From assembly GCA_049968235.1 (NCBI GenBank), contig JBMFRC010000001.1, positions 96,001-160,000 on the forward strand: 64,000 bases of DNA, read 5' to 3'. This DNA comes from Candidatus Hydrogenedens sp. (GTDB lineage: Bacteria; Hydrogenedentota; Hydrogenedentia; Hydrogenedentales; Hydrogenedentaceae). How positions within the stretch are numbered: the stretch's first letter is position 1; each line of letters opens with the position of its first letter. The notes beneath the pieces were generated by a model. The model searched no databases, had not been told where the DNA came from, and saw nothing but the letters and a program-made list of their open reading frames with translations. Made by a program: the position numbers and the translations under genes. Positions 7,420-64,000 of the stretch are shown piece by piece.

Positions 7420-10400
7420 TTAAGAAGATTCTTTTCCAACATTGAAGAATCTGGCACCTGTAGTATCAATAATATCAGGAGTCACGAAGATTAACAAGCT
7501 GGATTGTTGAACCTCTTTTGATTTTCCACGGAAGAAAAATCCGATTAAAGGAATATCCGCAAGATATGGCATTTTTTGATTGTTATGGATGGTTTTATCT
7601 TGAACTAGACCGCCCAATACCAGAGTATCACCATCATGGACAATAACATTGGTCCATGCTGCCTGCCATGAAGTAGTTGGAAGAATAATTTCTGTTTTTG
7701 TTTCTGTTGTCCCAACAACATTTTTCTGTTCAAATTTCTTTTCTCCAATTCGTGCGCGTACTTCAGGGTTTAACCATAGACGCACCTGGTCATTATCACG
7801 AATTTGTGGAGTTACAGAAAGAGCAATACCGAAGTTGAATGGACTGAATTGGGGTTGTGTAATTACGGATTGTGTTTGAGAACCTCCAAAACCTCCTTCG
7901 GTTACATATACTTCATTATATACTTGCGTGAGATAATATTCTGTCTGGAAATCAGCCACTACTGCTGGTTTTCGGTTCATCGTTGTAACACGTGGAGCGC
8001 TTAACAATTCGGACTCTCTCAAACTATTTAGGTAATCAAATGCTACACTTAACTGGTCACCATCAGCATTATCAATTATTTTGGTTATTAAACTTAAAGT
8101 TGATGCGGCCGCAGCAGGAGCAGGTGGGTTAACTAACCCTGAAATGGTTCCTTGCGTTACTGAATTACGAACTACATTACTACCATCGGGTCGAACATAG
8201 AAAGGAACTTCTTCATCAACACCATCACCATTTATATCGTAACTGTAAGTTTGTTGAGATAGATAATCATTCTGACGAACTCTATTATTTAAATCACTTA
8301 GATTTCCCGTCCAGTTGAAACCTATTTTCTTCAAATCCTCAATACGCACCGTTAAAAATTTTGCTTCAATACTTACCTGTTTGGGGGTAACATCAATCTG
8401 TCCTAAAATCTGTTCAAATTTGTCCAGGTTTGTAGGAGTATTTGTTACGATTAACATATTTGTGGCTTCATTATAAGCAATTTTAGACAACACCTCACCT
8501 GTATAGGGTTCTTTCACAGGAGGGATGGCATCGGCAAGAATCTGTAATCCGGATAATTCCGTTTCTTCAAAACCAGCACCAGCACCTAACTGTGCTGTTC
8601 CCTGGGCACCACCATAACCTGTGGCTGTGGTTCCCGTTGCTAATGTTCCTCTACCCCCCAAACCACCTATGCCGGCACCTGTACCAACTTGAGTAATACC
8701 GATAGGACCTAATTCACCAACTATTTGGTCACTAATGGTAGAAAACATATCCGAAATATTGCTTAATGTTGTAACATCTCTTCCATAACCGCCGCCATAT
8801 CCACCCATTCCACCACCATACATTCCGCCACCATATCCGCCATATCCACCCATTCCACCACCATACATTCCGCCACCATATCCGCCATATCCGCCCATTC
8901 CACCACGATATCCGCCCATTCCACCACCATACATCCCTCCGCCATATCCACCGCCATACATTCCACCGCCATATCCACCACCATACATTCCACCGCCATA
9001 TCCACCACCATATCCGCCACCGCCATACATCCCACCGCCATATCCACCGCCATACATTCCACCGCCATATCCGCCACCATATCCGCCACCGCCATACATC
9101 CCACCGCCATATCCGCCCATTCTACCTCCATAACTTACGCCATATCCGCCACCATAACCTCCACCTACCCCGCCAACACCACCGAATGGATTTCTTAATA
9201 CTAATTTAAATAGACGGTCAGAACCGACATTTCTCATTTCATAAAATCGTGTTTCTAATGCTTCGAAAGTTTCCTGACGGATAATTTCAGGTTTACTAAT
9301 CCATACAAATCCTGGTTGAACAGAGAAATCCAAACCTAAGGGACGGAGTAAAGCTTTTAATGCTTCTCTCAAAGTAACATCTTTAAGACTGATATAAGGA
9401 ACAATACCATTGGATTTTGTTCCATAATATACATCTGGAGATACTGCATAACCTTGTTGTCCGGGAGCACCCAGAGGAGCACCCAAGCCACCACCTTGAA
9501 GGCCACCCGGCGGGGCTCCGCCAGGACCTCCTCTTAAACCAATACCTCCAGGAGCGACACCGGGCCCTGCCATGGGGGGACGTACTCCTCCGGGAGCACC
9601 GAAGGGCTGTCCTGGAGCACCGGGCATACCCATCGCACCGGGTTGGGCTGGCTGGCCTGGTGTTTGTTGAGGTTGCTGTTTAGAAGGAGGTTCTACGGCA
9701 CGATTATCAATAACTATGTTTACACCGTAACTATCAGAAATAAATGTTGTAATTTCACTGATATGAATATCTTCGAACTCGATACTAACGATGGAATCTA
9801 AGGACTTCTCTATTTCACTTACTTTGGTTACGGGAGCGGTTTCTTCTTCTATTTCAGGTACTGTAAATTTATAAGGTTTTATTCCTCGTGCATCGGCACC
9901 TTCAGGAATTTGTTTCGATTTTTCTATAAATTCCCTCACTCGGGCACGGTCTTCTGAAACTTTTCTCTCTGATTCTTTTACAGATTCCTGGTGAAGTTTT
10001 ATTGTTGCTTGATGCAATCCTTCACGAGCTGTATCATTTTTAGGGTCAATCAGTAAAATATTGTTATAAATCTCTACTGCAATATCAAATTTTTGTGCTT
10101 CCATATACCGCTGGGCATCGGAAAGTAATTTTTGAACTCTTTCTTTCTTTAATTCTTCTGCATTTTTTTCGGGCATCTCACCGGGTTGCGCTGGTTGAAA
10201 GGTTTCAAAAGCGGGGAGTGGAGTCATTTCTTTCTTTTCGCCAATAGATAATTGTAGTTGAGCATTACATTTTTGTTGATAAACCTGTGCCTCTTTATGA
10301 TTTGGGTCCAATGCGAGAGCACGATTAAATTCTGTAAGGGCTTCACGATAAAGTTCTTTCTTGTATAGTCCGACACCTCTACGGAAATATGTTTCTGCGT

Positions 10401-10677: not shown

Positions 10678-10689
10678 TTTTTTCCTACC

Positions 10690-11202
10690 TTATTTTTGCA
10701 TTTCTAATGTGAATCTTCTTCCATATTGTTCCGAATATATAACAACTGTTTTATCTTCAGGATTAACCTGTTCAAGAATAAACTGTTCAAATTCTTCACC
10801 TTCATCATACCATTTTGTTGTAGACCGGGTACGAAGTTGTGCTCGCCTCCGTTCTCCCACCTGGCGAATATTAAGTAAAGTAATTCCAAGGTCTTTGGCT
10901 GTAATTTCTTTTGAACCCGTAGAACCTGTAGATTCACCGGCAAAATACCAGAAGGGATTTTCTCTCCATAGAGAGGCATAAGTCCCGGGTATTGATGAGA
11001 GAGGAGGTGAAGGTGGCACAGGTGGTTTAAGTTCATCGGGGACCTCCTTCCGAGGAGGAGAATAAACTTCTTCTTTTTCCGGTGGAGGTGGATATGCAAT
11101 TACATATACCCGGTATCCTAAAATTCCTACCAGAATAAGTAAAACAAATCTTTCTTTGTTCCACCAGAACCATATTCCTATTTTTTGTATTTTGTCTATC
11201 AT
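10690..11202 (-). CDS. pilP: PilP-like pilus assembly protein with an N-terminal TM helix, a proline-rich linker and a C-terminal beta domain.
   Basis: It sits between the pilO-like and pilQ genes. The TM helix is FVLLILVGILGYRVYVIAY and the proline-rich segment is PPPPEKEEVYSPPRKEVPDELKPPVPPSPP. The C-terminus LLNIRQVGERRRAQLRTRSTTKWYDEGEEFEQFILEQVNPEDKTVVIY resembles the PilP/GspC-HR fold pattern, in which an R-rich strand is followed by a 'G...F..V...D.VV.' motif. Confidence 0.45.
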   Translation of the reverse strand: MIDKIQKIGIWFWWNKERFVLLILVGILGYRVYVIAYPPPPEKEEVYSPPRKEVPDELKPPVPPSPPLSSIPGTYASLWRENPFWYFAGESTGSTGSKEITAKDLGITLLNIRQVGERRRAQLRTRSTTKWYDEGEEFEQFILEQVNPEDKTVVIYSEQYGRRFTLEMQK

Positions 11203-11211
11203 AGTATATAT

Positions 11212-12183
11212 TTAATTTGTATATAAAATATATCGTTTAAACCATTTCCATGCTTTTGCAAAAAAACCTGCTTGTTCAGCAGAAGTATCTTTATTTACGG
11301 ATTGTCGTCTTTGTCCACCTGCTCCCATTTGTGTCTGATATTGAAGTTGAATATCAATACTCACCTCCTGAGGAGGTTTGTAATTTGCTTGTGAAATAAC
11401 CATTTCTATCTGGAGCAAAGGCTCTACATTATAAGCGATATAGGGATACTGAATTCTAAGGGCATTGATATGAAAATAACGGTCCGCTAATCGTAATTTC
11501 TGCTCTACAAAATTTACGAAATCTTTCATTGTCATATTACAGCGGACTCCAAACACAAAAAACGATAATAATTTCTCAAAATCGGGATGCTGTGAAATAG
11601 GAGGCCAGAAAACAATATCATCTATACTTACCATTTTGGAATCCAAAAGGTATTCACACATCTTGATACCAAAGGCGAGTTTTGCCAACTGTCTATTTAC
11701 TAATTCTTCCGTAACATCTGTTCTTGATATTTCATCAAGACTAAGTACTCCTAAAGATTTTCGTATATCCTGAGGGAACAGGTCATACCGACCCATCTTT
11801 TCTCCTACTTTTTCATACAGTTGTTTTACCATTTTTTGTGCTTGTTCTTCATACCAGAATTTTAATATAACACCTTCTTTAGGGGGAACTTCATGGTCTG
11901 TCCAGTTACTCAGATTAAAGAAGGAAGACCTTTTCTTTAAGGCATCTTCCCAGGGTATTACTTGGGCTCGCCATTCACGAATTAATACTTCGGGGTCTGT
12001 TCGTGAAAAGGTCTGTTCTAAGTCTTTCAGTGCATTTTCATATGCTTTTTTTAAATCTTCATCTTTCTTATAGGCTGTGAGTTGTTTCTGTAAGAAGAAA
12101 TAGTAAACACCTGTAAAAAGGAGGAATGAAAGGAGTAGAACGGTAATATAGATAAGGGTGCCTCTTGAAATAGTTATATTCAT
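11212..12183 (-). CDS. pilO: PilO-like bitopic inner-membrane protein, assigned by position and topology.
   Basis: It has an N-terminal TM helix (LIYITVLLLSFLLFTGVYYFFL) and then a coiled-coil region. It lies between pilMN and the pilP-like gene and overlaps pilMN by 4 nt. No family-specific motif was recognised, and at 323 aa it is longer than a typical PilO. Confidence 0.35.
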   Translation of the reverse strand: MNITISRGTLIYITVLLLSFLLFTGVYYFFLQKQLTAYKKDEDLKKAYENALKDLEQTFSRTDPEVLIREWRAQVIPWEDALKKRSSFFNLSNWTDHEVPPKEGVILKFWYEEQAQKMVKQLYEKVGEKMGRYDLFPQDIRKSLGVLSLDEISRTDVTEELVNRQLAKLAFGIKMCEYLLDSKMVSIDDIVFWPPISQHPDFEKLLSFFVFGVRCNMTMKDFVNFVEQKLRLADRYFHINALRIQYPYIAYNVEPLLQIEMVISQANYKPPQEVSIDIQLQYQTQMGAGGQRRQSVNKDTSAEQAGFFAKAWKWFKRYILYTN

Positions 12184-14270
12184 GACCCTGCTCCTCCTCC
12201 GGTGGGTGCTAAATCTTTTGCAGACACCCGTTCAAACTGCACTGTGATTATAAAGGTAAACAAATTTTGGCCGGTTGCTGAAAATGCTGCTGTCTGTCCT
12301 GTCTGCTGGGATAATGCCCCCAATCGTTGTTGACCCCCAAAACTTCCTGTTCCTGGAGCAGAACTACCTTGAAACGCAGACTGTGCATTATATAAAGAAC
12401 TCCAGGGAGTTACCTGTACGCTGGCTTCAGAAAAGTAAACTTCTTTAATTCTTAAAACACCTTCCGAAAGATTTAACGAGGCTTTCTTCAAATTATCCAC
12501 AAAACTTTTAATGATAGTATCCGAAGTCGCTAACCCTGTTATACGAAATCCATTTGAACGAGGTAGAGGTGGTGCCTGTTGTGTTCCCGGTGATTGCTGT
12601 GTTGTTGGGGGGGGAGGAACGTTATCTCTTCTAAAAAGCCCTCCACCACCTGTTCCGCCCATTCCTACCATAGGTCCATGTGAACCTATTCCGGGGAAGC
12701 CTGAAATATTAACTGGAGTTTGTTGTTGCGTTGGTATACCCATAGCCGGGATATTCCTGCCTGCTGGCATAGGTTGCCCTGCTTGCGGTTGCTGGATAAA
12801 AACCGTTTCGATGGAACTAAACCATATTCCGTCTTTATCGGTTCGGGGAGGTCTTGCGGATAGAACCAGAGACATTTCATCCAACCAATATCTTCTATTA
12901 TAAACCGCTTTATCCAGTGCCTTTACTTTGTTTTCTAAGATTTTAATTTCTGCCTGTGCCTTACTCAATTCCTGTTTTAGAGGAGACACAATCGTTGGAT
13001 TCTGGGCTACTTCGGGGTCGTACATTCGCACATATCGGCGGAGTTCTTCTATTCTAGCCTTGACAAACTTATTCTGTGATGCATGTACAGGAATCACAGA
13101 TGCCATTATCAAGGCAAGGGTAATCATGGACAATGCCCAGTAAATGGCTTGTTCTTTTCTCCTTCGTATTTCTATGATACGCGGGGGAATAAGATTAATT
13201 TCTAATGCGGTTGTTTCCCAATTACGGAGTGCTAATCCCAAAACGACGCAACTTCTTTCAGGATGTTGAGCAATGGATTGTGCATCAGGACCGATTGTAA
13301 TACCACTGAGAGGCTGGGCAATTCGCACATCTATCCCTAAGGCACGCTGGAGGAATGGCACAATATTCCGAAGAGCACATCCTCCTCCACATAAATAAAC
13401 TCGTGTTACCTGTCCTCCACCGGGAAGTGAACGGAAATAGGAAAAAGAACGTTGAATTTCGTTTACAAGACGGTTCAATACGCGTCCAATGGCTTCTCCT
13501 CCTTTACCGTCAATTTGAGGATTCCCTGTAGGTGCGAAGCCTTTTTCACATTTAATTTTCTCCGCTTCCTCAAAAGGAATATTGAAAGTATCTGCAATAG
13601 CCTGAGTAATATCATTTCCACCGATATTTAATGTTCTTGTATTACGGAAAATGCCGTCGCGTTCTACAACAATATTTGTGGTGGAAGCACCAAGGTCAAT
13701 TACTGCGACGCATTCACTATGTGCATGAAGTTCCCCGTTATATTTGAGCCAACTATACGAAGCGAAAGGAATAACATCCACAATGTCAGGACTTAATTTT
13801 AACCCTTCCACAATAGATAAGTATTTATCAACCACATCTGTTTTGATGGCAACCATCAGAACTTCATAACCCCCTCCTTCTGGATGGTCTAATATCTGAT
13901 AATCAATGGCTATCTGTTTCAAATCAAATGGAATTTGTTGTTGAATTTCATATCTAACAATCTGGTCTACTTTCCTCTCCGCTACGGGAGGAAGCGAACG
14001 AACACGAACAAATACGGATTGACCCGGAACGGCTAACATTAATTTTCTGGTTTTTACTTTTGCCTGTTTTAATAGTTCTGCAACTGCTTTCTTTCGTAAA
14101 TCTTTTCGTTCCTCTTCATCCATCCGAAAATCATTCGTTACAGGTTTCTCAAAATATTTTATCAACTGCAGTCCACTTTTTGTTTTCTTAAATTCGCAAA
14201 GACGAACCGCAGAAGTTCCTATCTCAATGATTACTCTCTTTTTTCCTTTTCTTGTCGTATATACTGACAT
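12180..14270 (-). CDS. pilMN: Fusion of PilM (actin-like ATPase fold) and PilN, with a C-terminal Gly/Pro/Gln/Thr-rich low-complexity tail of about 250 aa.
   Basis: PilM hallmarks are RVIIEIGTSAVRLCEF, VAVIDLGASTTNIVVERDG and VYLCGGGCALRNIVPFLQRALGIDVRIAQPL. The PilN hallmark EINLIPPRIIEIRRRKEQAIYWALSMITLALIMASVIPV is followed by a coiled coil. The tail begins QPMPAGRNIPAMGIPTQQQTPV and ends ...GSFGGQQRLGALSQQTGQTAAFSATGQN. Confidence 0.75.
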   Translation of the reverse strand: MSVYTTRKGKKRVIIEIGTSAVRLCEFKKTKSGLQLIKYFEKPVTNDFRMDEEERKDLRKKAVAELLKQAKVKTRKLMLAVPGQSVFVRVRSLPPVAERKVDQIVRYEIQQQIPFDLKQIAIDYQILDHPEGGGYEVLMVAIKTDVVDKYLSIVEGLKLSPDIVDVIPFASYSWLKYNGELHAHSECVAVIDLGASTTNIVVERDGIFRNTRTLNIGGNDITQAIADTFNIPFEEAEKIKCEKGFAPTGNPQIDGKGGEAIGRVLNRLVNEIQRSFSYFRSLPGGGQVTRVYLCGGGCALRNIVPFLQRALGIDVRIAQPLSGITIGPDAQSIAQHPERSCVVLGLALRNWETTALEINLIPPRIIEIRRRKEQAIYWALSMITLALIMASVIPVHASQNKFVKARIEELRRYVRMYDPEVAQNPTIVSPLKQELSKAQAEIKILENKVKALDKAVYNRRYWLDEMSLVLSARPPRTDKDGIWFSSIETVFIQQPQAGQPMPAGRNIPAMGIPTQQQTPVNISGFPGIGSHGPMVGMGGTGGGGLFRRDNVPPPPTTQQSPGTQQAPPLPRSNGFRITGLATSDTIIKSFVDNLKKASLNLSEGVLRIKEVYFSEASVQVTPWSSLYNAQSAFQGSSAPGTGSFGGQQRLGALSQQTGQTAAFSATGQNLFTFIITVQFERVSAKDLAPTGGGAGS

Positions 14271-14524: not shown

Positions 14525-15922
14525 TTACTTCTTCTGTGCAGATAAATTTTGGGATAAGTCTTTTACACATCGGAAGCCATAATCTGAACGATTTGAATCC
14601 ATTCTGTCAAAATGACGACGGGCACATCTTGCGTCAAATTTTTCTGTCATAAAGGAACCTCCCCTTAACACACGATAAATTTGCCCATACTCTTTTCGGA
14701 TATACTGATTTCCTTCATATCGCTGATACCAGTCTGAAACCCATTCATATGCATTCCCTGCCATATCAAAACAGCCATAAGGTGAAACGCCTCCAATATA
14801 ACTACCAATAGGGACAGGCATGTCAAGATTTTTTTCTTTTGTGTTACATAAATCTAATGAGAATTCGTTTCCCCATGGGTATTCTCTACCATCTTCACCA
14901 CGAGCGGCTTTCTCCCATTCAATTTCGGTGGGTAATCTTTTCCCCACTCTTGTCGCATATGACACAGCCTGGTCCCATGAAACACCCGTTACAGGGTAGC
15001 GCTCTTGTCCTTTGGGGAAAGTATACTCTGGAAAAACTTTTTTAAATTCTTCATTTGTTACTTCGTATTTATCAATATAAAATGCAGGAACAAAAACTTT
15101 TTTTCTTGGTGCTTCATCGGGAGAACGTTCATTTTCACCAAAAATAAATTCACCTGCTGGGACCAATACCATTCCTGGGGGGGTTTCTCCTTCTTTTAAT
15201 ACAAGTGTAATAGTTTGCTCTTTGTTTGGTTGAATAACAACTTTTGAATGTTCTTCAATAAAACCATCTGCAGAAATTGTGATTAAATATTCACCCGGCG
15301 CAAGTTGCAATTGTAAGGGTGTCTTTTGTGATTGAGGGACATTATTAATCCGAACAGTTCCACCTGTGGGACGAGATAGAATATTTATCGTTCCTTCCAT
15401 AGGTTTCAAGATATATTTTATTGGGTAGTGAAAATCTTCACGGACTTCTAAATCACCCTCAACAGGATAGTAATCTGCCAGTTGCAATTTATATGTTTTA
15501 TGTCCAATTTCTACAGGATATCGGAAAATGGGGGTATTTCCTATCTTCACCCCATCCAGATAAACTTCGGCTCCTGAGGGTTCGGTTTCAAAATTAATAT
15601 ATCCCTGTAACGGCTTTAATTGTAATAGATATTGAGAATGTTCTCCGGGACGAAGAAGCAATGTTTCCACTGTTCGTTGATAATGTTCCTTTTTTAATAT
15701 TACTTCGAGAGAACCGGGAGGGAGATCTGTCAATGTCAGAGGAGTAACTCCTTTTTCCTCTCCAAATACAATAACCGTTGCTCCCTGTTCTGGTGCAGTG
15801 TCTATTGTAACACTGCTTAATTGTTGTCTTTTCTTTTCAGAGGAACACGATAAAACAAGAGATACAACGACAATCCAACCTATACCCCATACTACAGCCT
15901 GCTTCATATTACTGTTAACCAT
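14525..15922 (-). CDS. Lipoprotein with PEGA-like beta domains and a C-terminal formylglycine-generating-enzyme (FGE-sulfatase/SUMF1, DUF323) domain.
   Basis: The lipobox-like sequence is SLVLSCSS. The FGE signature is GEFIFGENERSPDEAPRKKVFVPAFYIDKYEVTNEEFKKVF...YPVTGVSWDQAVSYATRVGKRLPTEIEWEKAARGEDGREYPWGNEF...LRGGSF. The N-terminal half has repeated PEGA-type modules (GATVIVFGEEKGVTP..., AEVYLDGVKIGNTP..., GTVRINNVPQSQKTP). Confidence 0.7.
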   Translation of the reverse strand: MVNSNMKQAVVWGIGWIVVVSLVLSCSSEKKRQQLSSVTIDTAPEQGATVIVFGEEKGVTPLTLTDLPPGSLEVILKKEHYQRTVETLLLRPGEHSQYLLQLKPLQGYINFETEPSGAEVYLDGVKIGNTPIFRYPVEIGHKTYKLQLADYYPVEGDLEVREDFHYPIKYILKPMEGTINILSRPTGGTVRINNVPQSQKTPLQLQLAPGEYLITISADGFIEEHSKVVIQPNKEQTITLVLKEGETPPGMVLVPAGEFIFGENERSPDEAPRKKVFVPAFYIDKYEVTNEEFKKVFPEYTFPKGQERYPVTGVSWDQAVSYATRVGKRLPTEIEWEKAARGEDGREYPWGNEFSLDLCNTKEKNLDMPVPIGSYIGGVSPYGCFDMAGNAYEWVSDWYQRYEGNQYIRKEYGQIYRVLRGGSFMTEKFDARCARRHFDRMDSNRSDYGFRCVKDLSQNLSAQKK

Positions 15923-36801: not shown

Positions 36802-36831
36802 ATTACAAACTTTCTTTTATGTCTTCTTAAA

Positions 36832-37941: not shown

Positions 37942-37963
37942 ATATGTATCTCCTTATATTCAA

Positions 37964-39805: not shown

Positions 39806-39880
39806 ATTCTATATCCATGTTTTCTCTATATACTTTAACATAATTTTAAACAAAAATCAATGTTAAAAATGCGGATTTAG

Positions 39881-39914
39881 TTATAATTACATAAAAAATA
39901 TATTTTGATGTCAA
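39881..39914 (-). promoter_or_regulatory. Candidate promoter for the pilB-pilT-pilB-pilC-pilin operon on the minus strand. The -35 box is a perfect TTGACA.
   Basis: Reverse-complementing 39880-39914 gives TTGACAtcaaaatatattttttatGTAATTATAAc. TTGACA is followed, after a 17-nt spacer, by TGTAAT, and TATAAC follows after 23 nt. These lie in the 213-nt intergenic gap between the gspM-like stop and the pilB start at 39805. The -10 box is ambiguous. Confidence 0.3.
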
Positions 39915-40018
39915 TAATTTATTACAAATCTTTGTGACCCCTATTTATTTTTATATCTTCTATTATATATTATAAAAGTCAGGCGAACCTTTTTTACAAT
40001 ACGAAAATATGGTTTTTC

Positions 40019-51768: not shown

Positions 51769-52731
51769 CTAATCTTGTATTCTATAGATTATTTCCATCG
51801 GGTTTCCATTTCTAAGGATGGATACTTTAACAGAGGGAAGTGTAACATCACTGTATTTTTTTATCAAGTCTATTACCTTTTCATCACTATCAATAATATC
51901 GTCGTTTACTGCGGTAAGGACATCTCCTTCCTTAAACCCTAATTTTACTGCAATCGGAATTTCACTAATATTTTTTGCAGTAATGCCGAGTACTTTGCCT
52001 TCCGCATCTTTATACAATTCCGGCTTAACACGCGTAACCAAATCTGCATAACTTGCAAAAAAGTCCTGTACGATTTCATCTCGATTTAAATCTACTTGCT
52101 TTTTCTCAGGCTCATTCGTTTTTGCAGGTTTCGAATCAGTTTTACTGGGTGGTTTTTCCTCTTTTGCTTTTAATAATTCTAAAGATTTATCTTCTAATTT
52201 CAATCGTTCTCTTTTAGGGGGATGGGTTTTTTTATTTAACAATATCACTTCTTTAGGATATACCTCTTCTAAAACTACCTGCTCAACGACTTCCTGTCCA
52301 ATAGCAAAAGCAGCGGTAATTCTTTTGTCGGAATTTTCAATGAAAGCGGATGCAAATCGGTCTTTAGGAGACAGGGCAATGGTCCCTATTAATTTTAAGT
52401 TTAATTGAGTATCTTCAAGAGTATCCTGAGGAGACAGTTGTTCTGTTTTTTCTTCTTTTTTAGGAACTGTATCCTCTGTCCATCTACCTGCATTTCCAAA
52501 TAAACCTGATTGTGTTATTTTGTTGAAAAGACTTTTAGCATCAATATTTATTAACTCATTCTGCACAGTTCCTTCTTCCTCACCGGCTATACCTGTTTTT
52601 TTGGCTATTTTCTGGGCAGGATTGTAGGTATAAATAATAAAAAAGAAAACTCCAAGTGCAATAAGTATTGAAAAAATCAGTATGATATGAATAAGAAAAA
52701 ATAGTCTTTTAATTTCTAACGAATGAACCAT
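51769..52731 (-). CDS. gspC: GspC-like protein with an N-terminal TM helix, an HR (secretin-interacting) domain and a C-terminal PDZ-like domain.
   Basis: The TM helix is FFLIHIILIFSILIALGVFFFII. The HR-like segment is LNLKLIGTIALSPKDRFASAFIENSDKRITAAFAIGQEVVEQVVLEEVYPKEVILLN. The PDZ-like C-terminus is ITAKNISEIPIAVKLGFKEGDVLTAVNDDIIDSDEKVIDLIKKY. It is the first gene of the gspC-M array. Confidence 0.6.
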   Translation of the reverse strand: MVHSLEIKRLFFLIHIILIFSILIALGVFFFIIYTYNPAQKIAKKTGIAGEEEGTVQNELINIDAKSLFNKITQSGLFGNAGRWTEDTVPKKEEKTEQLSPQDTLEDTQLNLKLIGTIALSPKDRFASAFIENSDKRITAAFAIGQEVVEQVVLEEVYPKEVILLNKKTHPPKRERLKLEDKSLELLKAKEEKPPSKTDSKPAKTNEPEKKQVDLNRDEIVQDFFASYADLVTRVKPELYKDAEGKVLGITAKNISEIPIAVKLGFKEGDVLTAVNDDIIDSDEKVIDLIKKYSDVTLPSVKVSILRNGNPMEIIYRIQD

Positions 52732-55398: not shown

Positions 55399-58300
55399 TT
55401 ATGTTGTCTGTTTTTTCTTTGCAGACAGGAGAAACAGCAAAACTGCAATTACCAGACCTATATCAAAGGCATAAGCACTGAAACTTGATTGTTGAGTATC
55501 TTGTCTTTCAGCACAACCAAACATATAAAAACGTTTTTTAGGTGTCTGGGCATCATTTGCATATTCGAAACCTCCTACGAGCGTTTTTTCTGTCCCCTGG
55601 TCTATATTTTTCACAGTAACATCCAGAGATCCTACTGTTGGAATACCGCCCAATGGGAAAGTTATCAGGATGGATGTCCCGTCTGCTGATACAGATTGGA
55701 CAGGCATTAATGTATTTCCGAAATATACCTGTATATTTTCAATCGTTGAGAAATTGGATCCTTGTATGGTTACCGGAAATTCTTTTGATGTACCTTTGTT
55801 CGGATTTATGGAATTGATAATAGGTATCCGTCCCACAGGCTTCGATGTAAGTGTAAATAAATCGGTCCGTGAGGCTTCATCTCCGTTAGAAGTGTTCCGT
55901 ACCAATAAAACTATAGGCTCCATAGGAACAACTCCGGGCATTGTACTAACGGCTATAGTTATGCTGGTATCCGTTGCCTGAATAACACGAACTTGATAAC
56001 CGGATAAACGCACTACAGGGTTGTTTCCAAAATTCCTTCCATATATAACCAATGTAATTTCCTGCCCTTCAAGGGTCTGTATGGGTAATTCAGAGATAGA
56101 TGTGGATTCTATTACCAGTGAAGATGGGGCTATGATTCTATTTATAGAATTAATTACACCGGTTCTCCGTTTCTTGGTGCAATGGGAACGAACCCAGTTT
56201 ACACCCGAATTATCGGCTTTTGCTCCTGCTTTTTTCCCATCCATATAATATCGAACAGGAGGCTCTTTGAAATAGGTAATGAATCCCAGTCCTCTAACGC
56301 CCCATGGAAATTCTCTAAATTTACGGAAATCATTTCTTTGCTCACCTGACAGACGAGCCCAGGTATCGGGGTCAGGTTCTGTTGGTGTATTAGGTCCCCA
56401 GTTAACCACTCCAATTCTGAAATTCACACCGGTTCTCATTTTATCTGAGGCACGTAATATAACAAAGAAATCGGGACCATAAAAAGGATTCTTGTTATTT
56501 GAACCAAACGATGTAGGTATCCATTGACGATTACGAGATTGTTGCACACGAGGAATAGGCACATCATCTGTACCCGGACTGGAAAACACAAATTTAACCT
56601 GGGTGGCTTCACCTGTTTGACCGATATAATAAGGTGTTGCATCTAAGGGTATTGGAATATCTATGTCTGCATCAAAGATGCCATTCCTGTTTCTTGGGTC
56701 AGCGTCATTATCTCGATATAAAGCAATACCACTAATCTGTGGGTCAATATGAAGAGGTAACAAATCATTCAATGGATTAAAGTTCGCATTTGTACCTTCA
56801 TCATAAAATTCCAATGTAACTTCTTCTAAGAAACTGGGATTGCGTTCAATCCGCCAGGAACCATTGCGTGGAGTCCCGCTCAGTAAATACACCTGATTCG
56901 TTGTATTCCCCACAATTTCATAAGATTCAAAAGCAGAATCTATCAAGAAATCTCCAATAAGTGAGTTCGGTTCAAAAGTCACACCGGATACTGTAAATGT
57001 TTTTTCAGAACCTACACCATTTGTTCCTTGATAAAGACTATCTTCGGGTCTGTTCGTTGAAATATCAAATCCCATTACACAAAAGGAGGGACCTCCGGGA
57101 ACAATTGCTTGTTGTTGACTTGTAAAGTCATATATTTGCACGGGTATATTTGTCTCAAGCATATCGTTCCCGTAGAAGTCCTGGACAGGGTCTTCTTCCG
57201 GACTTGATTTAATATATGCAGTGGAACTAGTATTAACCTGTGGGAAGAATTGAATACCTGCTTTTTTCTCCGAATCGCTTCTTCCGGGTAGTGTTGCTGG
57301 TATTACCGCTCTGAAGGATTGGAATCGTTTCCCTTTATCATTCAGTCGAACAGTAATGAAGAGGTCATCTCCGGGATTATTTCCGGTTTCATTCGTTATT
57401 TGTTTCTCTAAGGATTGATTTGTGGTATTTGTCTCTTCGCTCGATTTCTCTTTTATATTCTTTTCAAATATGACATCGCTGAAATCTATATTTCCACATT
57501 CTATTGGAACAGTACCAAAAAGGAAATTCATAAAATCATCCGTAGGTAATCGCCACTTTTCTTTTGGATACATGGTAAGAACCCATGCATAATCTCGCTG
57601 GTCGATTAGACCATTACCATCCATATCATCCGGAGAACCATCTCCATCAATATCAATAGGTTCAGGCCAAGAACTCCATTGTAAATTATTCAATGGGACA
57701 GGCTTATCTCCTATATTTGGCATTGGCAAATCCCAGTAGGTTGCCAATAGTTTGGGTTCAAAGAAAATTCCATTCTGGTCGGTATCTTCCCAAAGCAAGA
57801 CACCCGAGTCGTAACTCTTACCATCCGGGTCCAGTGGCATAAGTAAATCCGGAGAGAAATCAGGTCCCCAGAACGCAACAACAATTTTTGCTACAGATGG
57901 GGCTTCCTGCCCTTCATTGTTTACGACATAATCACCCGAACCTACCAAATTAATACCTAACATAGCGGTATGTTCCGAGTTAATATCTGTTTTTTGTGTA
58001 AGTAATCTTGCTCGATTAAACTCCGAAGCCCACTGACTTGCCCGCGGATATTCATTAGGACCTATATTGCGAGACCATGTAGTATAATCCGGTAAGGCAG
58101 GTTGGTCTAAGGGATTTACATACGCAGAGGAACGCGTGTCCGGACCCAAAATATTCACATGGTCAAACGGAACTGTCTCATAAGCATATTGCCCTCTACT
58201 ATGAGTATAGTCAAAACTAACGGTAAATGTGTTATTATCTGTAATAGAATAAGTAAATCCACCAAATTCACGCCATCTTGTTACACCTACCGAATGTAAA

Positions 58301-61300
58301 TTCAAGAATTGTGTCCTTATCTTTCCTTCGGGGTCCATCCACTTATCAAAATCTTTTGGATAATCGTATAATCCGACGGAATAGCCAAGACAATTTCCTA
58401 AATTAATAGAACCGGAACCATAGAATATATCTGATTCAAATTTATAAGGGGAATCGGATGTATAAGTTAACACTAAGTCATGGACATCCAACCCTACTTT
58501 CATAGGTTTTGTAGATTTTTCATTTACTGTTCGTTGATTCCACCACGGTTCTTGTTGTCCCCATCTCAAATCTGATTGCCAGGGAGGACCTCCCCCATCC
58601 AAAAGTCCGCCTAATGGAGGAATCTGGGAATCTACATAAATACCTCCTGTAGGTTTACCATTATTATCAACCCGTCTTGGCTCTATAAAGACGCGGAAAT
58701 CTGCACCCATCATAACACCATTACCATCAGGTACGGTCTGAGAAACATCCTTAAATCCACTGTCTGTTCTTATTACAACGAAGTAATCACTCGCATATTC
58801 ACTTCCTGTAGCCACACCAACATAATTATCCGGTATCGGCTCAACAAAACCGGAGACATCGTTATCACTGGGAGTAACATATCTCCTTCGTCCATAGAAG
58901 AAACGAAGATTTATCTTCCACCATGGGTCTCCTCCTCCCGGTGGGAATGGTATGTATTCCCAATTGAGTAGTTGACCTGTAGGCAAAATAAAACCTTCAG
59001 ACAGATTAATTCCGATTACCGTCTCGGGTAATAATGGATAGTCACCGTTTAACTGGACTCCTTGTCCATCAGGAAGTGGTGTCGGTGGGTCAAATTTACC
59101 GTTATTATTTGTATCATGCCACACCCAAACACCATTAAAAACAATATCCTGGAATAACACCTTGTCACTATTTATCAAAAGTCCATTTATTTGAGTAGAA
59201 ACTTTATCCAAAGATTCACGAGGGTCAAAACCTCCATTGCCGGGAGGACCGTATGGGTCTGCTCCAATATCTGTAAAAATAACATTTACCTCTCGAAGTT
59301 GTGACCATATCCTCTTCTCTGCGGTATAACGCGGTCCTACTAACGTGTCATATCCATCTGCATGCACAGATTTTGTAGAATGGACATTTATTCCTATCAC
59401 AGGTTTCCATGTATCCATAGCAACCAGGCGACGGAACGACAATAGTTCTCCGGCATACATATATAACAGTTGGTTAAACTTTGACCACTTGGGGCGTGTA
59501 TGTTCTGCAAGAGGTGTATATAACCGCGTCGGATAATTCCATGCATCAAAACCACTATACTCCCATTGCTCAGGATTGATAATACCGTTCAAATCCCAAA
59601 CAGTAAAACTGGCAGAATAGCCTGTGTCGGATATCATTTTTTCTGGTTTTTTCGCATCATAGAAGTTTGGGTCATACTCATCTATTGCATCTCCATCTGT
59701 ATTTCTTGGAAAGATACCATTAAGTTTTATCATCTCCGCACGAAGAACATCACAAGCCATAGTAATCTGGCTTCGCCATGTGGCAGATGTTCGAACGGCG
59801 ACAATATAGGAATTTCCATCAAATCCTTCATCTTGATTGGGAGCCGTTACAACAGGATAATCCGGTTTATCTGGTGTTCCACTCCCAATAAAGTTCAGCC
59901 TATAAGTAATACCCTCCGGAGAATATGGATTTTGCGTCAGAATTTGTGCTAATGGCGTTCCATCCGAATTCCACTTAAATAACAATTCATCATAATAGGG
60001 GTCTAATTGATTATTATATTCTTCTTTCTTTGAATAGTTTTCCCTGAATAAGGCAAATTCTAATAAATCAGAAATATTGGGACCTCCCTGATTCCCATAA
60101 TTTAACTCACCTTGACTTCTTTTATCCGCTCGAATTCGATATACTAACGATTTCAAAACTCGTGGAGCCGGATTTTCCGGGTCATAGCCCATTGTAAAAT
60201 TAAATAATGGAACCCAGTCTGTCAAGGGCAAAAGTGCTTCTTTATCTTTGATTATAGATTGGACAGAGAATTTGGCACTTGGCTCCTCTTGATTTTCACC
60301 TTCTGTTGTTCCTTCTGTTTGCCCTTCTCCTTCTGTCGTTGATGGACAACCAATACATGGACCTACAGTTATATAATTAGGTATCAGATAACATAGTTTC
60401 ATGGTCTCATTAGTATTTACATTTTTAAATGTTACTTCAAGAGTGACAGAATAGAATCCTTCTTTAGTGTATCTATGTATCGGGTTCTGTTGTGTGGATT
60501 CTATAGCAGGGACATTATCTCCAAAACTCCAGGACCATGCAGTAACTTTCCAGATATCTGTTCCGACGGACATATCCCTAAACTGCACATCCAGGCCCGG
60601 TTCTTTTTCACCCATAGCATCCGGCGTTATGTATCCTGAATTGGGTTGGGCAGTGAAGCTAACATAGGGAGCACTTAATATTTCTATATAATCTCTTTTA
60701 ATTTTAGATGCACTTAATCCATTCTTATCTTTTATAACGACGCTGACGGTATATGTTCCTGCCTGGGAATATGTATGTGTTGGATTTCTATCTGTGGATT
60801 GTGTACCATCTCCGAAATCCCACTGAACGGAAGCCAGCGTTATTCCACTACCCGGAACTAATGTAAATTTAATTTGTCCTCCGGGTATCTGTCTCTGTCT
60901 ATCCGCCGTAAAATCAACGGTTGGTACCTGCAAAGCCACTATTGTCTTGGTACGACCGGAAGCAACCGGATTTGTGCGAATCCAGTTTAATCCCAATCTG
61001 TCCGATTGAGCCTGGCTCATGTCCACTTCCGCTCGTGCTGTCCATTTGCGGAGTCTATCATTATATGCCCAATAACGATAAATAAGTGGGTCCTTAAAGA
61101 AACTAATAAACCCTAATGCACGATTTCCCCATGGGAATTCGGAATATAGGTAGAACAATCCATCGTTAATATCACCGGCACCCGGATATATACGAACAAA
61201 ATTATCCGGGTCGGGTTCCGTAGGGGTATCTCCACCAAACGAGACTATTGCTGCCTGGAATGCATCTCCTGCACTTATTGCAGATGATGTTCGGATTACC

Positions 61301-64000
61301 ACAAAGAAGTCGGGACCGTATCCATTTTCACTGGGACAATCTCCAAAGCATACCGGAATAGGTTGCCGGAGCCGAGGCTGAGAAATATACGGTGTTCCTC
61401 CTTGTGTTGGGTCTCGTCCAACACTATTATCGGTACCGGGTGAAGAGAACACAAAGCGAACCTGATAACGTGGGTCTCCCGGACGGGAATACCACACTGG
61501 TGAATTATCCAATCGTAATGGCAAATCAATATAATCAACAGTTCCATCATTATTAATAATCGGTGGGTCAAATACTCCATTTGTATTTCTCGGGTCCCAA
61601 TCATTGTCCCGCCAGATTGAAACACCACTTTCTTTCCCATTTGCAGGGTCTTCTTCATTTAACGGTAATAAATCGTTATATGGGTCAAATCCACGAACTG
61701 TTGTTTGCGTATTCGCATTATAAAATTCAACAATTACCTGCTCTAAGAAGGTAGGGTCTTTAACCACATACCAGGGACTACCATTCTTCGGAGTTCCTGC
61801 TCTTAGCCGTAAAGTCCTTCCCTGAGCACCTGTAATTTCAAAGGCTTCCACCCGTTTATTTACTTCCTGGTCCGCCTGACCATAAGCGATCAGCCACATA
61901 CCCACTATATTCTGTGTCCATGCACCATTAGAATAGAAATCTTTAAGGCTCGTTTCAGGAATAATAATATCTCGAGCATCAGGACTGAATGCCTTATCTC
62001 CAGCAGATGCACCGGTACCATTTCCGTAAGCAATTAAATTTTCAACACGGTTCATTGATGCGTCAATACCTAAAATAGCAATAGGCTGTCCACCGGGAAT
62101 TATAACCGGTGTTGTAATACCACTGGTTGAAGGAGGAAGTAATGCATCCGTCATATCTACAATTCGTGACGGTACACTCACCTGCAACATATCATGTCCA
62201 TAGAAATCCTGCAAACCACCTTCTTCCGGATTTGTCTTAACAACAGCTCCTCGCGATGTTAAACCACCCTGAGAAAACACAACCCCTGCGAATTGTGCTG
62301 TTGTAGGAGTTCTATCCGGTAACCGTGCAGGAACTAAACAACGAAACTCCTCAAAAGCACTTACTGTATCGGATGTTCGGATTACCACAAATAAATCATC
62401 TCCCCTATGTCCTCCTGCTGTAAGTGCCTTTGCATCCTTTTCCATCGGGACAACATTTGCAACACCTTCATCATCATATTCTGGAGATACTATATCCAAA
62501 AGCAAAGATTTCTTTGCCGAAGATGTTATCTTTTCTGTATCTTTAACATCTTTTATTATTTCCGGAGATAACGGAAGTGATAAATTGCTATTTGCTTCTA
62601 AACTCTTTGCAGTTATAGGTGGATTGGCTCCTCCGGAGCGTATATCGGATTGAGGCACTGTCCATGGCTGTGCAGGTGTTAATTTTAATACCCATGCAAG
62701 GTCTTTTAATCCATCCCATGCTTTCTTCTGGGCAGAAGTAAGTTGCGGTCTTTCCAGGTCAGATAAATCAACATTTCCATCTGTTACAATACCGTCACCA
62801 CTCAAATCATCTGGAATATTATCTCCATCTAAATCTACAGGTTCCGGTTTAATACCCCATTCTAAGGAGCCCGGAACCAGAGGGACGATTCTATCCGTAA
62901 AGACAGGAACAGATACAGTATCTAAAAACACAGGACCTGTAAACACCCCATCCGCATTTGTATCCTCATAAAGCAAGACACCTGAAGATGGGAGTGTTCC
63001 ACCTGTGCTATCCAATGGAGTTAAGTCAGATGGGTCAAATTCCGGTCCCCAGAACGCAACATATATGCTATTTAAAGCTACGGGACCTGAACGATTTACT
63101 ACGGGGTCATCTGCACCGGATAAGTTAAATCCTAACACTGCTACGGGTTGCGATTTATATTCTACCTTCTGTCTCAAAATTCGAGCGGAACGGGACTCAC
63201 CATTGGGTCCTGAACTTACTGTGTTATTGCCCCATCCTGCTGGCCAATCTGCCATTTGCGGATAACGATTGCGAACCATTGTGTTTTGTGTAACTAACCA
63301 GGGACCCCGTTCTACCGCATTGGCTCGTCCTCCTCTAACACCATAAGGATACTGAGAGACCGATAATTTGTTCCCATTCATCATATAAGGAGATATATAG
63401 GCTGAATGTCCATTCTCAAGTTCTAATATATTCCCACTGTTACTCTTTATATAGTATCTACCTCCATTATTATCTATAAACCACCAGCCCGATAAATCTA
63501 CTCCTGCGAAATTACCATCTAATAATTCTGCATAATAGACATCATCCTTGTATCCTGCCCAGACACCTTGCCATGTTTCTATAACATTAGGGTCTTCGCT
63601 TGGGTCGAAATGATAGTATTCAAGGTTATCCCCAAGTGTCCCTTCATCTGCATATACAATACAACGCGAACCAAAGTTTACAAGACCTAATCTCATGGGC
63701 CATGTATAATAATCCGGTAAAGTTGGTTGAATAAATGGTTTAGGATATGCTGTACTTCGTGGAGTTAAAGAACGAGGTAATAATGGGTCATCAAAGGTAG
63801 GTTCAAAAGGTACGGTTTCAAAAGCATACTGAAACGATGTTAACTCATCTAAATTAGGAACAGGCTGACCTGTCCAGAAAATCGCCTCTGAATAGTCCGG
63901 TAAGATACCCGGATTATATAAATATCCTAGCGCAGAACTGGAATTTAATAAAGGATTCGTATTGGGGTCAAGAATCAGGTCAGAAGGAGGTGCTAATCCC
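55399..64000 (-). CDS. Giant surface protein, 5'-truncated at the window edge and longer than 2,860 aa. It contains PKD domains, IPT/TIG domains, internal super-repeats and a C-terminal TM helix plus Lys-rich tail.
   Basis: Manual translation shows the reading frame stays open from the annotated Met (63696) to the window end at 64000, where the protein reads ...NPGILPDYSEAIFWTGQPVPNLDELTSFQYAFETVPFEPTFDDPLLPRSLTPRSTAYPKPFIQPTLPDYYTWPMRLGLVNF.... The PKD domains are WDFGDGTQSTDRNPTHTYSQAGTYTVSVVIKDKNG and WSFGDNVPAIESTQQNPIHRYTKEGFYSVTLEVTF. IPT-like modules lie near the C-terminus. The C-terminal tail is FGCAERQDTQQSSFSAYAFDIGLVIAVLLFLLSAKKKQTT*. Confidence 0.75.
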   Translation of the reverse strand, partial: GLAPPSDLILDPNTNPLLNSSSALGYLYNPGILPDYSEAIFWTGQPVPNLDELTSFQYAFETVPFEPTFDDPLLPRSLTPRSTAYPKPFIQPTLPDYYTWPMRLGLVNFGSRCIVYADEGTLGDNLEYYHFDPSEDPNVIETWQGVWAGYKDDVYYAELLDGNFAGVDLSGWWFIDNNGGRYYIKSNSGNILELENGHSAYISPYMMNGNKLSVSQYPYGVRGGRANAVERGPWLVTQNTMVRNRYPQMADWPAGWGNNTVSSGPNGESRSARILRQKVEYKSQPVAVLGFNLSGADDPVVNRSGPVALNSIYVAFWGPEFDPSDLTPLDSTGGTLPSSGVLLYEDTNADGVFTGPVFLDTVSVPVFTDRIVPLVPGSLEWGIKPEPVDLDGDNIPDDLSGDGIVTDGNVDLSDLERPQLTSAQKKAWDGLKDLAWVLKLTPAQPWTVPQSDIRSGGANPPITAKSLEANSNLSLPLSPEIIKDVKDTEKITSSAKKSLLLDIVSPEYDDEGVANVVPMEKDAKALTAGGHRGDDLFVVIRTSDTVSAFEEFRCLVPARLPDRTPTTAQFAGVVFSQGGLTSRGAVVKTNPEEGGLQDFYGHDMLQVSVPSRIVDMTDALLPPSTSGITTPVIIPGGQPIAILGIDASMNRVENLIAYGNGTGASAGDKAFSPDARDIIIPETSLKDFYSNGAWTQNIVGMWLIAYGQADQEVNKRVEAFEITGAQGRTLRLRAGTPKNGSPWYVVKDPTFLEQVIVEFYNANTQTTVRGFDPYNDLLPLNEEDPANGKESGVSIWRDNDWDPRNTNGVFDPPIINNDGTVDYIDLPLRLDNSPVWYSRPGDPRYQVRFVFSSPGTDNSVGRDPTQGGTPYISQPRLRQPIPVCFGDCPSENGYGPDFFVVIRTSSAISAGDAFQAAIVSFGGDTPTEPDPDNFVRIYPGAGDINDGLFYLYSEFPWGNRALGFISFFKDPLIYRYWAYNDRLRKWTARAEVDMSQAQSDRLGLNWIRTNPVASGRTKTIVALQVPTVDFTADRQRQIPGGQIKFTLVPGSGITLASVQWDFGDGTQSTDRNPTHTYSQAGTYTVSVVIKDKNGLSASKIKRDYIEILSAPYVSFTAQPNSGYITPDAMGEKEPGLDVQFRDMSVGTDIWKVTAWSWSFGDNVPAIESTQQNPIHRYTKEGFYSVTLEVTFKNVNTNETMKLCYLIPNYITVGPCIGCPSTTEGEGQTEGTTEGENQEEPSAKFSVQSIIKDKEALLPLTDWVPLFNFTMGYDPENPAPRVLKSLVYRIRADKRSQGELNYGNQGGPNISDLLEFALFRENYSKKEEYNNQLDPYYDELLFKWNSDGTPLAQILTQNPYSPEGITYRLNFIGSGTPDKPDYPVVTAPNQDEGFDGNSYIVAVRTSATWRSQITMACDVLRAEMIKLNGIFPRNTDGDAIDEYDPNFYDAKKPEKMISDTGYSASFTVWDLNGIINPEQWEYSGFDAWNYPTRLYTPLAEHTRPKWSKFNQLLYMYAGELLSFRRLVAMDTWKPVIGINVHSTKSVHADGYDTLVGPRYTAEKRIWSQLREVNVIFTDIGADPYGPPGNGGFDPRESLDKVSTQINGLLINSDKVLFQDIVFNGVWVWHDTNNNGKFDPPTPLPDGQGVQLNGDYPLLPETVIGINLSEGFILPTGQLLNWEYIPFPPGGGDPWWKINLRFFYGRRRYVTPSDNDVSGFVEPIPDNYVGVATGSEYASDYFVVIRTDSGFKDVSQTVPDGNGVMMGADFRVFIEPRRVDNNGKPTGGIYVDSQIPPLGGLLDGGGPPWQSDLRWGQQEPWWNQRTVNEKSTKPMKVGLDVHDLVLTYTSDSPYKFESDIFYGSGSINLGNCLGYSVGLYDYPKDFDKWMDPEGKIRTQFLNLHSVGVTRWREFGGFTYSITDNNTFTVSFDYTHSRGQYAYETVPFDHVNILGPDTRSSAYVNPLDQPALPDYTTWSRNIGPNEYPRASQWASEFNRARLLTQKTDINSEHTAMLGINLVGSGDYVVNNEGQEAPSVAKIVVAFWGPDFSPDLLMPLDPDGKSYDSGVLLWEDTDQNGIFFEPKLLATYWDLPMPNIGDKPVPLNNLQWSSWPEPIDIDGDGSPDDMDGNGLIDQRDYAWVLTMYPKEKWRLPTDDFMNFLFGTVPIECGNIDFSDVIFEKNIKEKSSEETNTTNQSLEKQITNETGNNPGDDLFITVRLNDKGKRFQSFRAVIPATLPGRSDSEKKAGIQFFPQVNTSSTAYIKSSPEEDPVQDFYGNDMLETNIPVQIYDFTSQQQAIVPGGPSFCVMGFDISTNRPEDSLYQGTNGVGSEKTFTVSGVTFEPNSLIGDFLIDSAFESYEIVGNTTNQVYLLSGTPRNGSWRIERNPSFLEEVTLEFYDEGTNANFNPLNDLLPLHIDPQISGIALYRDNDADPRNRNGIFDADIDIPIPLDATPYYIGQTGEATQVKFVFSSPGTDDVPIPRVQQSRNRQWIPTSFGSNNKNPFYGPDFFVILRASDKMRTGVNFRIGVVNWGPNTPTEPDPDTWARLSGEQRNDFRKFREFPWGVRGLGFITYFKEPPVRYYMDGKKAGAKADNSGVNWVRSHCTKKRRTGVINSINRIIAPSSLVIESTSISELPIQTLEGQEITLVIYGRNFGNNPVVRLSGYQVRVIQATDTSITIAVSTMPGVVPMEPIVLLVRNTSNGDEASRTDLFTLTSKPVGRIPIINSINPNKGTSKEFPVTIQGSNFSTIENIQVYFGNTLMPVQSVSADGTSILITFPLGGIPTVGSLDVTVKNIDQGTEKTLVGGFEYANDAQTPKKRFYMFGCAERQDTQQSSFSAYAFDIGLVIAVLLFLLSAKKKQTT

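Follow-up and report, generated by a model that had tools for sequence, protein, structure and literature searches.

A type II secretion system adjoining a type IV pilus cluster with giant candidate tip adhesins in Candidatus Hydrogenedens

Does a gene array that carries both a type II secretion system (T2SS) and a type IV pilus (T4P) encode one surface machine or two neighbouring ones? The question is raised by a 64,000-nt stretch of DNA from Candidatus Hydrogenedens (phylum Hydrogenedentota), called the window below, in which the two systems adjoin head to tail on the same strand. From base 7420 to the window end run 28 consecutive open reading frames (ORFs), all on the minus strand, in an array of about 57 kb with inter-ORF gaps of -50 to +254 nt and several overlaps of 1-4 nt. 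In minus-strand order, the T2SS side consists of a truncated giant protein with PKD and TIG domains, a metzincin-motif protein and gspC-M, and the pilus side of pilB-pilT-pilB-pilC, a pilin, three minor pilins, two giants, an FGE-like lipoprotein, a pilM-N fusion, two small genes and a secretin gene. The gene order listed in a first-pass annotation of this DNA is real: the ORFs are co-directional, and most of its labels are backed by Pfam and NCBIfam profile scans of the window ORFs, from which, with the NCBIfam family cut-offs, the gene identities below are taken. Type IVa pilus (T4aP) genes are usually multi-locus, and MSH and Tad systems single-locus; the array is, as that annotation had held, unlike the usual T4aP organisation (Denise et al., 2019; PMC6668835). 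Known parts are thus combined here in an unusual way, with a T4aP-like system confined to one locus and joined to a T2SS.

Judged from sequence and gene order, we consider it fairly probable that the array holds two separable type IV filament modules whose adjacency is probably ancestral, and that the pilus is tipped with giant adhesins. The first module would be an ordinary-looking T2SS, gspC-M, with the PKD/TIG giant and the metzincin-motif protein as candidate cargo. The second would be a single-locus, retractile, type IVa-like pilus with two PilB proteins around PilT and H-I-J-K minor pilins, in which a K-position pilin of 2,536 aa would present an adhesive middle of about 2,300 residues, following the logic of CpaL/TadG at about four times the size, and a 1,973-aa Ig-like stalk would dock into the tip complex through a conserved C-terminal peptide. 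The adhesin mass at the tip of such a pilus would reach several hundred kDa, and the pilus would pull on its bound targets. The adjacency itself is a lineage trait and not a new machine, and the giant K-class pilin and its partner are most worth follow-up.

Linkage of the two modules across the phylum

A scan of one genome per species gave 71 loci, onto which the window proteins were mapped by tblastn. Sixty-six of these come from Hydrogenedentota or from unclassified metagenome-assembled genomes with the same cluster (among them Ca. Hydrogenedens terephthalaticus at 90% identity), and the gspC-M order is kept across the Hydrogenedentota loci. The run pilB-pilT-pilB-pilC-pilin begins 0.2-1.4 kb after gspM in 26 of the 44 assessable species-level genomes, over a GspL identity range of 26-90%, while unrelated genes follow gspM in the other 18; a genome was called negative only if its sequence ran on for 3 kb or more past gspM, and about 22 loci were too short. 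In one metagenome relative the junction carries a 3.8-kb insert. On a crude, midpoint-rooted neighbour-joining tree of GspF, GspK and GspL, genomes with the junction fall on most major branches, intermixed with unfused ones. Moreover, in one metagenome assembly the T2SS contig continues with OEP and housekeeping genes and a separate contig carries an intact, similarly diverged pilus cluster, so both machines persist unlinked. The adjacency was thus probably ancestral in the phylum and would have been broken several times without loss of either machine. Repeatedly retained in some members of the phylum and lost in others, the junction also offers a natural experiment on linkage.

The pilus block is kept in three contexts, with giants at 26-33% identity and a second large protein of 1,005-1,717 aa. 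Its conserved order is pilB-pilT-pilB-pilC-pilin, three minor pilins, the giant, the second large protein, the PEGA/FGE-like gene, pilMN, two small genes and the secretin gene. Most of the 80 loci in a metagenome scan seeded with PilMN read giant, second large protein, FGE-like gene, PilMN-O-P-Q and kdtA. Seven distant contigs have pilMN-O-P-Q with neither the FGE-like gene nor the giants in the 10 kb upstream (one has a fucosidase, HEAT/F5_F8 proteins and TPR proteins there), so the pilus block itself can be split. Separately, in Ca. Hydrogenedens terephthalaticus (AWNW01000041.1; 12276-19680 of the extracted locus), pilT is cut after about 135 codons; beyond the cut, the giant and the minor pilins lie in inverted orientation, which more likely reflects an assembly join than a rearrangement.

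The first-pass annotation had set its proposal against the case of a common layout in an already well-described clade. The layout is indeed common in its clade, but the clade is an uncultured, barely described phylum, and the searchable literature on Hydrogenedentota makes no mention of pili, secretion systems or this cluster. The cluster gives these uncultured bacteria a concrete, conserved set of predicted surface machinery, one that fits a particle- or cell-attached life in the digesters and sludges where close relatives occur.

How the two modules might be controlled bears on the same question. The 213-nt gap between gspM and pilB1 (39806..40018, minus strand, as are all array features below) contains a conserved promoter- or operator-like stretch: its last ~110 nt are nearly invariant in six relatives with 78-90% identical proteins, and within it lie a TTGACA box, a TTAACA-18-TATGTT match and the inverted repeat GGATTTATAACTAAATCC, whose copy in the window is degenerate. 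A 43-aa ORF called in this gap in relatives was rejected as coding, being interrupted by stops in the window; with stops in all frames, the conservation is non-coding. No additional copies of the inverted repeat beyond chance expectation turned up in a search. The 254-nt gap before pilMN has the best promoter-like match of the region (TTGACT-17-TACAAT, 14414-14386), and a terminator scan found none in the key gaps. The conserved stretch and the promoter-like site before pilMN make several transcription units seem more likely than one, and separate promoters would be expected for the modules.

A shared signal is possible through the assembly ATPases. GspE, PilB1 and PilB2 of the window all carry a tandem 24-residue MshEN motif that NCBIfam labels as binding cyclic di-GMP (c-di-GMP; NF053729), scoring 64, 61 and 63.5 bits, respectively, against a cut-off of 38, and one c-di-GMP signal could conceivably reach all three. 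Across the phylum, the strict double motif occurs in 21/24 PilB1 and 14/23 PilB2 proteins, and in only 4/40 GspE proteins.

Would these features add up to a single machine? The first-pass annotation had suggested one co-regulated apparatus, perhaps serving attachment to particles, hosts or prey, and a strong form of that idea is that T2SS and pilus are integrated, with linkage selected through mutual dependence; for example, the T2SS would export giant adhesins or enzymes that the pilus positions or uses. The adjacency, the long retention and the shared MshEN motif speak for it: the array is co-directional with short gaps, the 26 genomes that retain the junction lie on deep branches, all three ATPases of the window genome have both motifs, and giants flank both modules. 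We nevertheless regard it as unlikely. The modules are unlinked in 18 of the 44 genomes and lie on separate contigs in the metagenome assembly described above, each has its own ATPase, platform, pilins, alignment proteins and secretin, promoter-like gaps interrupt the array, one of them conserved and lying between the modules, and very few GspE proteins of the phylum keep both strict motifs.

Giant proteins of the putative pilus tip and beside the T2SS

The reading of two separable modules owes its second half, the giant adhesins, to the block of minor pilins that follows the candidate major pilin. These were classified by hhalign profile-profile comparison against the phylum's own T2SS pseudopilin families. 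The first is a minor pilin of the GspH/FimU class (mp294, 294 aa; 31800..32684) with an N_methyl match and an hhalign probability of 97.4% to the phylum's GspH, and the second, of the GspI/PilV class (mp141, 141 aa; 31378..31803), reaches 98.1% to GspI over 114 columns, with weak PilV and XpsI matches. The third, a 595-aa protein at the GspJ/PilW position (29640..31427), has an N_methyl match and weak matches to Verru_Chthon cassette C, HpsC and GspJ. With this protein at the J position and the matches to H, I and K, the tip block keeps the H-I-J-K order, a synteny that is near-universal in type IV filament tip operons (PMC13533445).

The fourth protein of the block, at 21923..29533, is the 2,536-aa giant. 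It appears to be a minor pilin of the GspK/PilX class whose two pilin-fold ends, a GspK-like N-terminal helix and a C-terminal strand region, are split by about 2,300 inserted residues. Its N-terminus (TG/AALVLAIGII...) has a prepilin-like hydrophobic helix without Glu5 and aligns with GspK at 96.3%, vs 39% for GspJ and 13% for GspH (NF037980, E=0.008), while its C-terminus (...RSDVFKIT...) aligns at 90% with GspK 324-343 and at less than 6% with GspH, GspI and GspJ, over 20 columns. The first-pass annotation had called the protein PilX_N; Pfam PilX_N does not match it, but a GspK-type N-terminus takes that label's place. About ten DxDxDG-type motifs and an LTD-like domain mark the inserted middle, which is presumably adhesive and rich in Ca motifs. 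Thirty homologues of 2,095-3,296 aa were found, and all those with a source name come from Hydrogenedens or Hydrogenedentes.

Directly after this K-class minor pilin, at the position of PilY1 or MshQ, lies a large secreted protein of 1,973 aa with a signal peptide (15998..21919). Its N-terminal part is variable, and only the last ~780 residues are conserved across the phylum. An exhaustive HMMER search of 1.84 billion proteins found 43 representatives of this C-terminal module family; full-length members (about 950-2,500 aa) all have it at the C-terminus, and the remaining matches are short fragments. In the predicted structure the module forms Ig-like domains and no propeller, and homology to PilY1 was rejected, as a C-terminal beta-propeller is absent. 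The family ends in (D/E)EQP(I/V)K..RE at the extreme C-terminus, which reads ...EEQRIKMFQRE in the window protein and is disordered in the monomer model. As for search methods, a word-indexed search with the C-terminal 784 aa (16001-18352) gave no match despite 59%-identical relatives, and such negatives are unreliable. A phmmer search of PDB sequences returned nothing for either pilus giant. MshQ (~1,200 aa) is likewise encoded directly after I-J-K homologues, and the prediction is that its C-terminal strand adds to the K subunit; more generally, the last ~10 residues of PilY1/PilC and MshQ add a strand to that subunit (PMC13533445). By analogy, we infer that the 1,973-aa protein uses its terminal peptide to add a beta strand to the tip complex and so dock there; both giants would sit at the pilus tip.

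A third giant and a putative protease stand upstream of gspC. The giant, a secreted or surface protein with PKD and IPT/TIG domains (55399..64000; PKD_4 7.7e-26, TIG 1.1e-9), has a frame open to base 64000 with no in-frame stop; it is cut at its 5' end by the window end and is at least 2,866 aa long. Next to it lies an 805-aa metzincin-motif protein (52915..55332) with a signal peptide and a perfect HELGHFLGLDH, a Peptidase_M10 score of 23 bits (slightly under the cut-off) and a weak match to the MXAN_2677/2678 metalloproteases. Its protease region is followed by a Thr-rich linker, about three hydrophobic helices (aa 540-630), a region with a borderline CFI_box_CTERM match (40.4 bits vs a cut-off of 40), and a further C-terminal domain of 170 aa. 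Both proteins are likely exported and may be cargo of the T2SS. In one relative a homologous giant and metzincin-motif pair follows gspM on the opposite strand, and in another the metzincin-motif gene does likewise; being found beside the T2SS in two arrangements, the pair may have a functional tie to it.

Taken further, the linked modules could, with c-di-GMP controlling both, work as a single "grapple-and-digest" organ. A retractile pilus bearing a ~270-kDa, Ca-dependent adhesin of GspK type and a docked Ig-stalk would capture particles or cells, and the adjoining T2SS would release the PKD/TIG giant and the metzincin-motif protein onto the captured target. We hold this to be a speculative and rather improbable extension. 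If it were true, no known pilin would be as large as the giant K-class one, and tip licensing by a strand in cis (CpaL-like) and by a strand in trans (PilY1/MshQ-like) would coexist in one filament.

Components of the modules and their surroundings

The T2SS module opens with GspC (51769..52731; T2SSC 1.6e-11 plus a PDZ domain, and GspC_delta at 8.9e-18, under its cut-off), followed by the GspD secretin (49067..51724; TIGR02517, 451 bits vs a cut-off of 351), which has Secretin, three Secretin_N and an N0 domain, and by the GspE assembly ATPase with its MshEN N-domain (47328..49067; TIGR02533, 692 bits vs 630). The exact GspE sequence was also found on a contig of assembly GCA_049969095.1. The GspF platform protein (46042..47280) has two T2SSF domains (1.3e-60), and the GspG major pseudopilin (45643..46038) matches T2SSG (3e-20) and N_methyl. 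The next three pseudopilins were assigned from prepilin N-termini and gene order: a 272-aa protein at the GspH position (44779..45597), which has a weak N_methyl match and is kept there in all relatives; the GspI-position protein (44264..44827), with the N-terminus GFTLME and a likely start at 44782 that gives 172 aa, the length of the gene called at this position in relatives; and the GspJ-position protein (43373..44260; N_methyl 2.5e-8). GspK (42090..43364) matches T2SSK_1st at 7.6e-16 and NF037980 at 113 bits, under the cut-off of 130. A GspL-type protein (40549..42108, likely start 42033) combines a PilM-like cytoplasmic domain, a transmembrane (TM) segment and a PilN-like domain (PilM_2 1.8e-13, PilN 1.7e-4, weak T2SSL 2.4e-4), and its family is almost confined to Hydrogenedentota, with homologues named Candidatus Hydrogenedens or Hydrogenedentes. 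The module closes with a 170-aa protein at the GspM position (40019..40531), made of a TM segment, a coiled coil and a small C-terminal domain and kept in place in 58 loci.

On the pilus side, PilB1 (37964..39805), an assembly ATPase with an MshEN domain, matches T2SSE at 1.9e-135 and has type_IV_pilB as its best family (635 bits, under the cut-off of 676). It is followed by the PilT retraction ATPase (36832..37941; TIGR01420, 461 bits vs 319) and by PilB2, a second assembly ATPase with an MshEN domain (35023..36801), which scores 602 bits as type_IV_pilB and 594 as GspE, both under the cut-offs. PilB1 and PilB2 are 40% identical to each other and 44% to GspE. The pilB-pilT-pilB order (35023-39805), with two extension motors around PilT, is kept in every related cluster seen. 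Next come the PilC platform protein (33764..35005; two T2SSF domains, 9.4e-67) and the candidate major pilin of 290 aa (32767..33639), which carries KGFTLVELLVV (N_methyl 1.2e-10) and aligns with GspG at 99.5% over its N-terminus only. In all, the Pfam/NCBIfam scan of window ORFs found prepilin N-termini on five proteins.

Beyond the giants, PilM is fused to a TM/periplasmic PilN-like tail in a 696-aa protein (12180..14270; PilM_2 5.1e-47, TIGR01175 174 bits vs 133) that scores best in NCBIfam against the Amuc_1101 family (277 bits, with a cut-off of 650). A 323-aa protein at the PilO position (11212..12183; TM segment, coiled coil, globular domain) is kept there in about 50 loci, and a 170-aa protein at the PilP position (10690..11202; TM segment, Pro-rich linker, small beta domain) is conserved in position as well. 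The last gene encodes a PilQ-type secretin of 1,085 aa with an N-terminal TPR (7420..10677; Secretin 1.8e-35, TPR_2, weak STN), scoring 144 bits on TIGR02515 vs a cut-off of 284, equal to its GspD score, and 142 bits on Amuc_1098, again under the cut-off. Two low-complexity runs interrupt this secretin, one rich in Pro/Gly/Ala (aa ~330-410) and one of ~140 aa rich in Gly/Tyr/Met (GGYGGGMYGGG..., aa ~497-635; window 8790-9115). The latter is encoded by imperfect tandem repeats of 21-69 nt, which cause a local anomaly in GC content and GC skew. A Gly-rich insert of GYM, GYR or GQ flavour occurs in PilQ of every T4P-cluster relative examined and in none of their GspD proteins; a secretin with a conserved, disordered Gly/Tyr-rich insert is of interest for pilus biology.

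Between the giants and pilMN, a place it holds widely in related loci, lies a gene for a lipoprotein with three PEGA domains and a non-catalytic domain of the FGE-sulfatase fold (14525..15922). In true FGE, a catalytic Cys-x4-Cys pair follows an RGGS motif. Here the family (38 members) reads RGGSFMTEKFDARCARRH, with the CxxxxC pair absent and one partly conserved Cys at the wrong spacing, and FGE activity was rejected since the pair is absent. Rather than catalysing a reaction, this protein more likely has a structural or binding function in the envelope.

The first-pass annotation had called both systems complete. Both machines are indeed present, but Peptidase_A24 has no match in the scanned window ORFs, and without the prepilin peptidase PilD/GspO neither T2SS nor T4P is strictly complete in the window. 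The gene for this enzyme often lies apart from its system (PMC6668835), and it is presumably encoded elsewhere in the genome.

Several of these components could suggest that the second module is not a pilus but a second secretion machine or a DNA-uptake machine, with the two giants as cargo rather than tip subunits. PilM fused to a PilN-like tail is an architecture like that of GspL, PilB2 is nearly equal as GspE and PilB and the secretin equal as GspD and PilQ, and the 1,973-aa protein has an ordinary signal peptide. This reading has little probability in our view: the cluster contains a bona fide PilT, conserved in every cluster, the 2,536-aa protein has a pilin-class N-terminus and not a Sec signal, and the H-I-J-K-Y1 synteny is typical of pilus tip operons.

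The reading we prefer, two separable modules with a giant-tipped pilus, also has results against it. The GspM-position protein has no profile match, and the PilO- and PilP-position proteins found no support from Pfam (E up to 5), NCBIfam, hhalign against GspM and GspL, family profiles against PDB or per-member Pfam scans. Of the first-pass labels for these three, position and architecture stand and profile support is missing: their bitopic architecture and conserved position fit the GspM, PilO and PilP roles, and nothing more. The pilin fold of the giant depends on short profile alignments of 67 and 20 columns, and an AF2 model of its first 700 aa was poor (pLDDT 59), with no Foldseek match in PDB at E<0.7. 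If the giant's own last strand acts in cis, the terminal peptide of the 1,973-aa protein would be left without a clear role, and the passage of tip proteins of ~270 and 215 kDa through a secretin is not obvious. The cargo role comes from linkage in two arrangements, the window and two relatives, a small sample. Promoter-like consensus sites are no more frequent in the scans than in shuffled sequence, and the tree behind the ancestry argument is a rough one.

Horizontal acquisition as a genomic island, for which one could cite the array's GC content (0.38-0.42, slightly above the 0.32-0.36 of the first 8 kb of the window) and the more frequent transfer of single-locus than of multi-locus type IV filament systems (PMC6668835), is highly improbable and was rejected on the cluster's conservation across the phylum, with no tRNA, integrase or repeat boundary in the window, homologues of the GspL-type protein and the giant almost only in Hydrogenedentota, and kdtA directly downstream of pilQ across distant relatives. 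The kdtA gene (waaA, Kdo transferase; 6068-7330, minus strand) keeps its place next to pilQ in about 20 related loci, down to 35% identity. Elsewhere outside the array are a zf-HC2 anti-sigma-like protein (409-1260, plus strand) and, at 1303-5988 on the minus strand, a TPR protein, an Mpo1-like protein and a three-gene sugar ABC transporter (solute-binding protein and two permeases). The tRNA and Rfam scans of the window gave no match.

Comparison with known systems

Set beside a canonical Gsp/Pul/Eps operon, the T2SS module has an identical component order, its GspD and GspE pass the NCBIfam equivalog cut-offs, and Pfam recognises GspC, GspF, GspG and GspK. It differs in that GspL scores higher as PilM/PilN than as T2SSL, GspM has no profile match, GspE bears an N-domain of the MshEN c-di-GMP type, and GspO, GspN and the pilotin are all absent from the window.

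In Pseudomonas aeruginosa, T4aP genes are arranged as fimU-pilVWXY1E, pilMNOPQ, pilBCD and pilTU. The pilus module shares with them the PilB/PilT/PilC motor, H-I-J-K minor pilins followed by a large non-pilin, and a block from PilM to PilQ. In contrast to that system, it occupies one locus without PilD, has two PilB proteins around PilT, a fused PilM-N and a PilX of 2,536 aa, places a protein without a propeller at the PilY1 position, inserts an FGE-fold lipoprotein, and has a secretin with TPR and a Gly/Tyr-rich insert in place of AMIN domains. Closer in architecture are Akkermansia Amuc_1098-1102, to which the PilM-N fusion (best match, Amuc_1101) and the secretin (Amuc_1098) point, and the Verru_Chthon cassette, whose proteins D, B, C and A are weakly matched in gene order by the four minor pilins, protein A being itself large (1,296-position model; E=0.044). 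All these scores are far under the family cut-offs, however, and indicate architectural resemblance, not membership.

GldK/PorK is a ring lipoprotein of the type IX secretion system (T9SS) and, like the FGE-like protein here, has an FGE-sulfatase-fold domain. It is the latter's best NCBIfam match, but at 94 bits against a cut-off of 350, and the protein here differs further in its three N-terminal PEGA domains and its location in a pilus cluster. A fold otherwise known from T9SS ring lipoproteins thus occurs inside a pilus cluster.

For the putative tip, the nearest parallels come from two other filaments. Caulobacter CpaL, of about 600 aa, has a C-terminal strand that folds back onto its N-terminal pilin-like domain (Ellison et al., PMC13533445), and the 2,536-aa protein appears to share the layout of CpaL/TadG, in which a large, dispensable middle part separates a pilin-like N-domain from a C-terminal strand that rejoins the pilin sheet. 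It is about four times larger than CpaL and has no detectable sequence homology to it. Likewise, the 1,973-aa protein resembles MshQ of the Vibrio MSHA pilus in its position after I-J-K and in its family's conserved terminal peptide, but is about 1.6 times larger, also with no detectable sequence homology. The Hydrogenedens cluster has both protein types together. Its K-class insert of ~2,300 residues, and the non-propeller protein encoded next with its conserved terminal peptide, would make it an extreme test case for the tip-licensing model.

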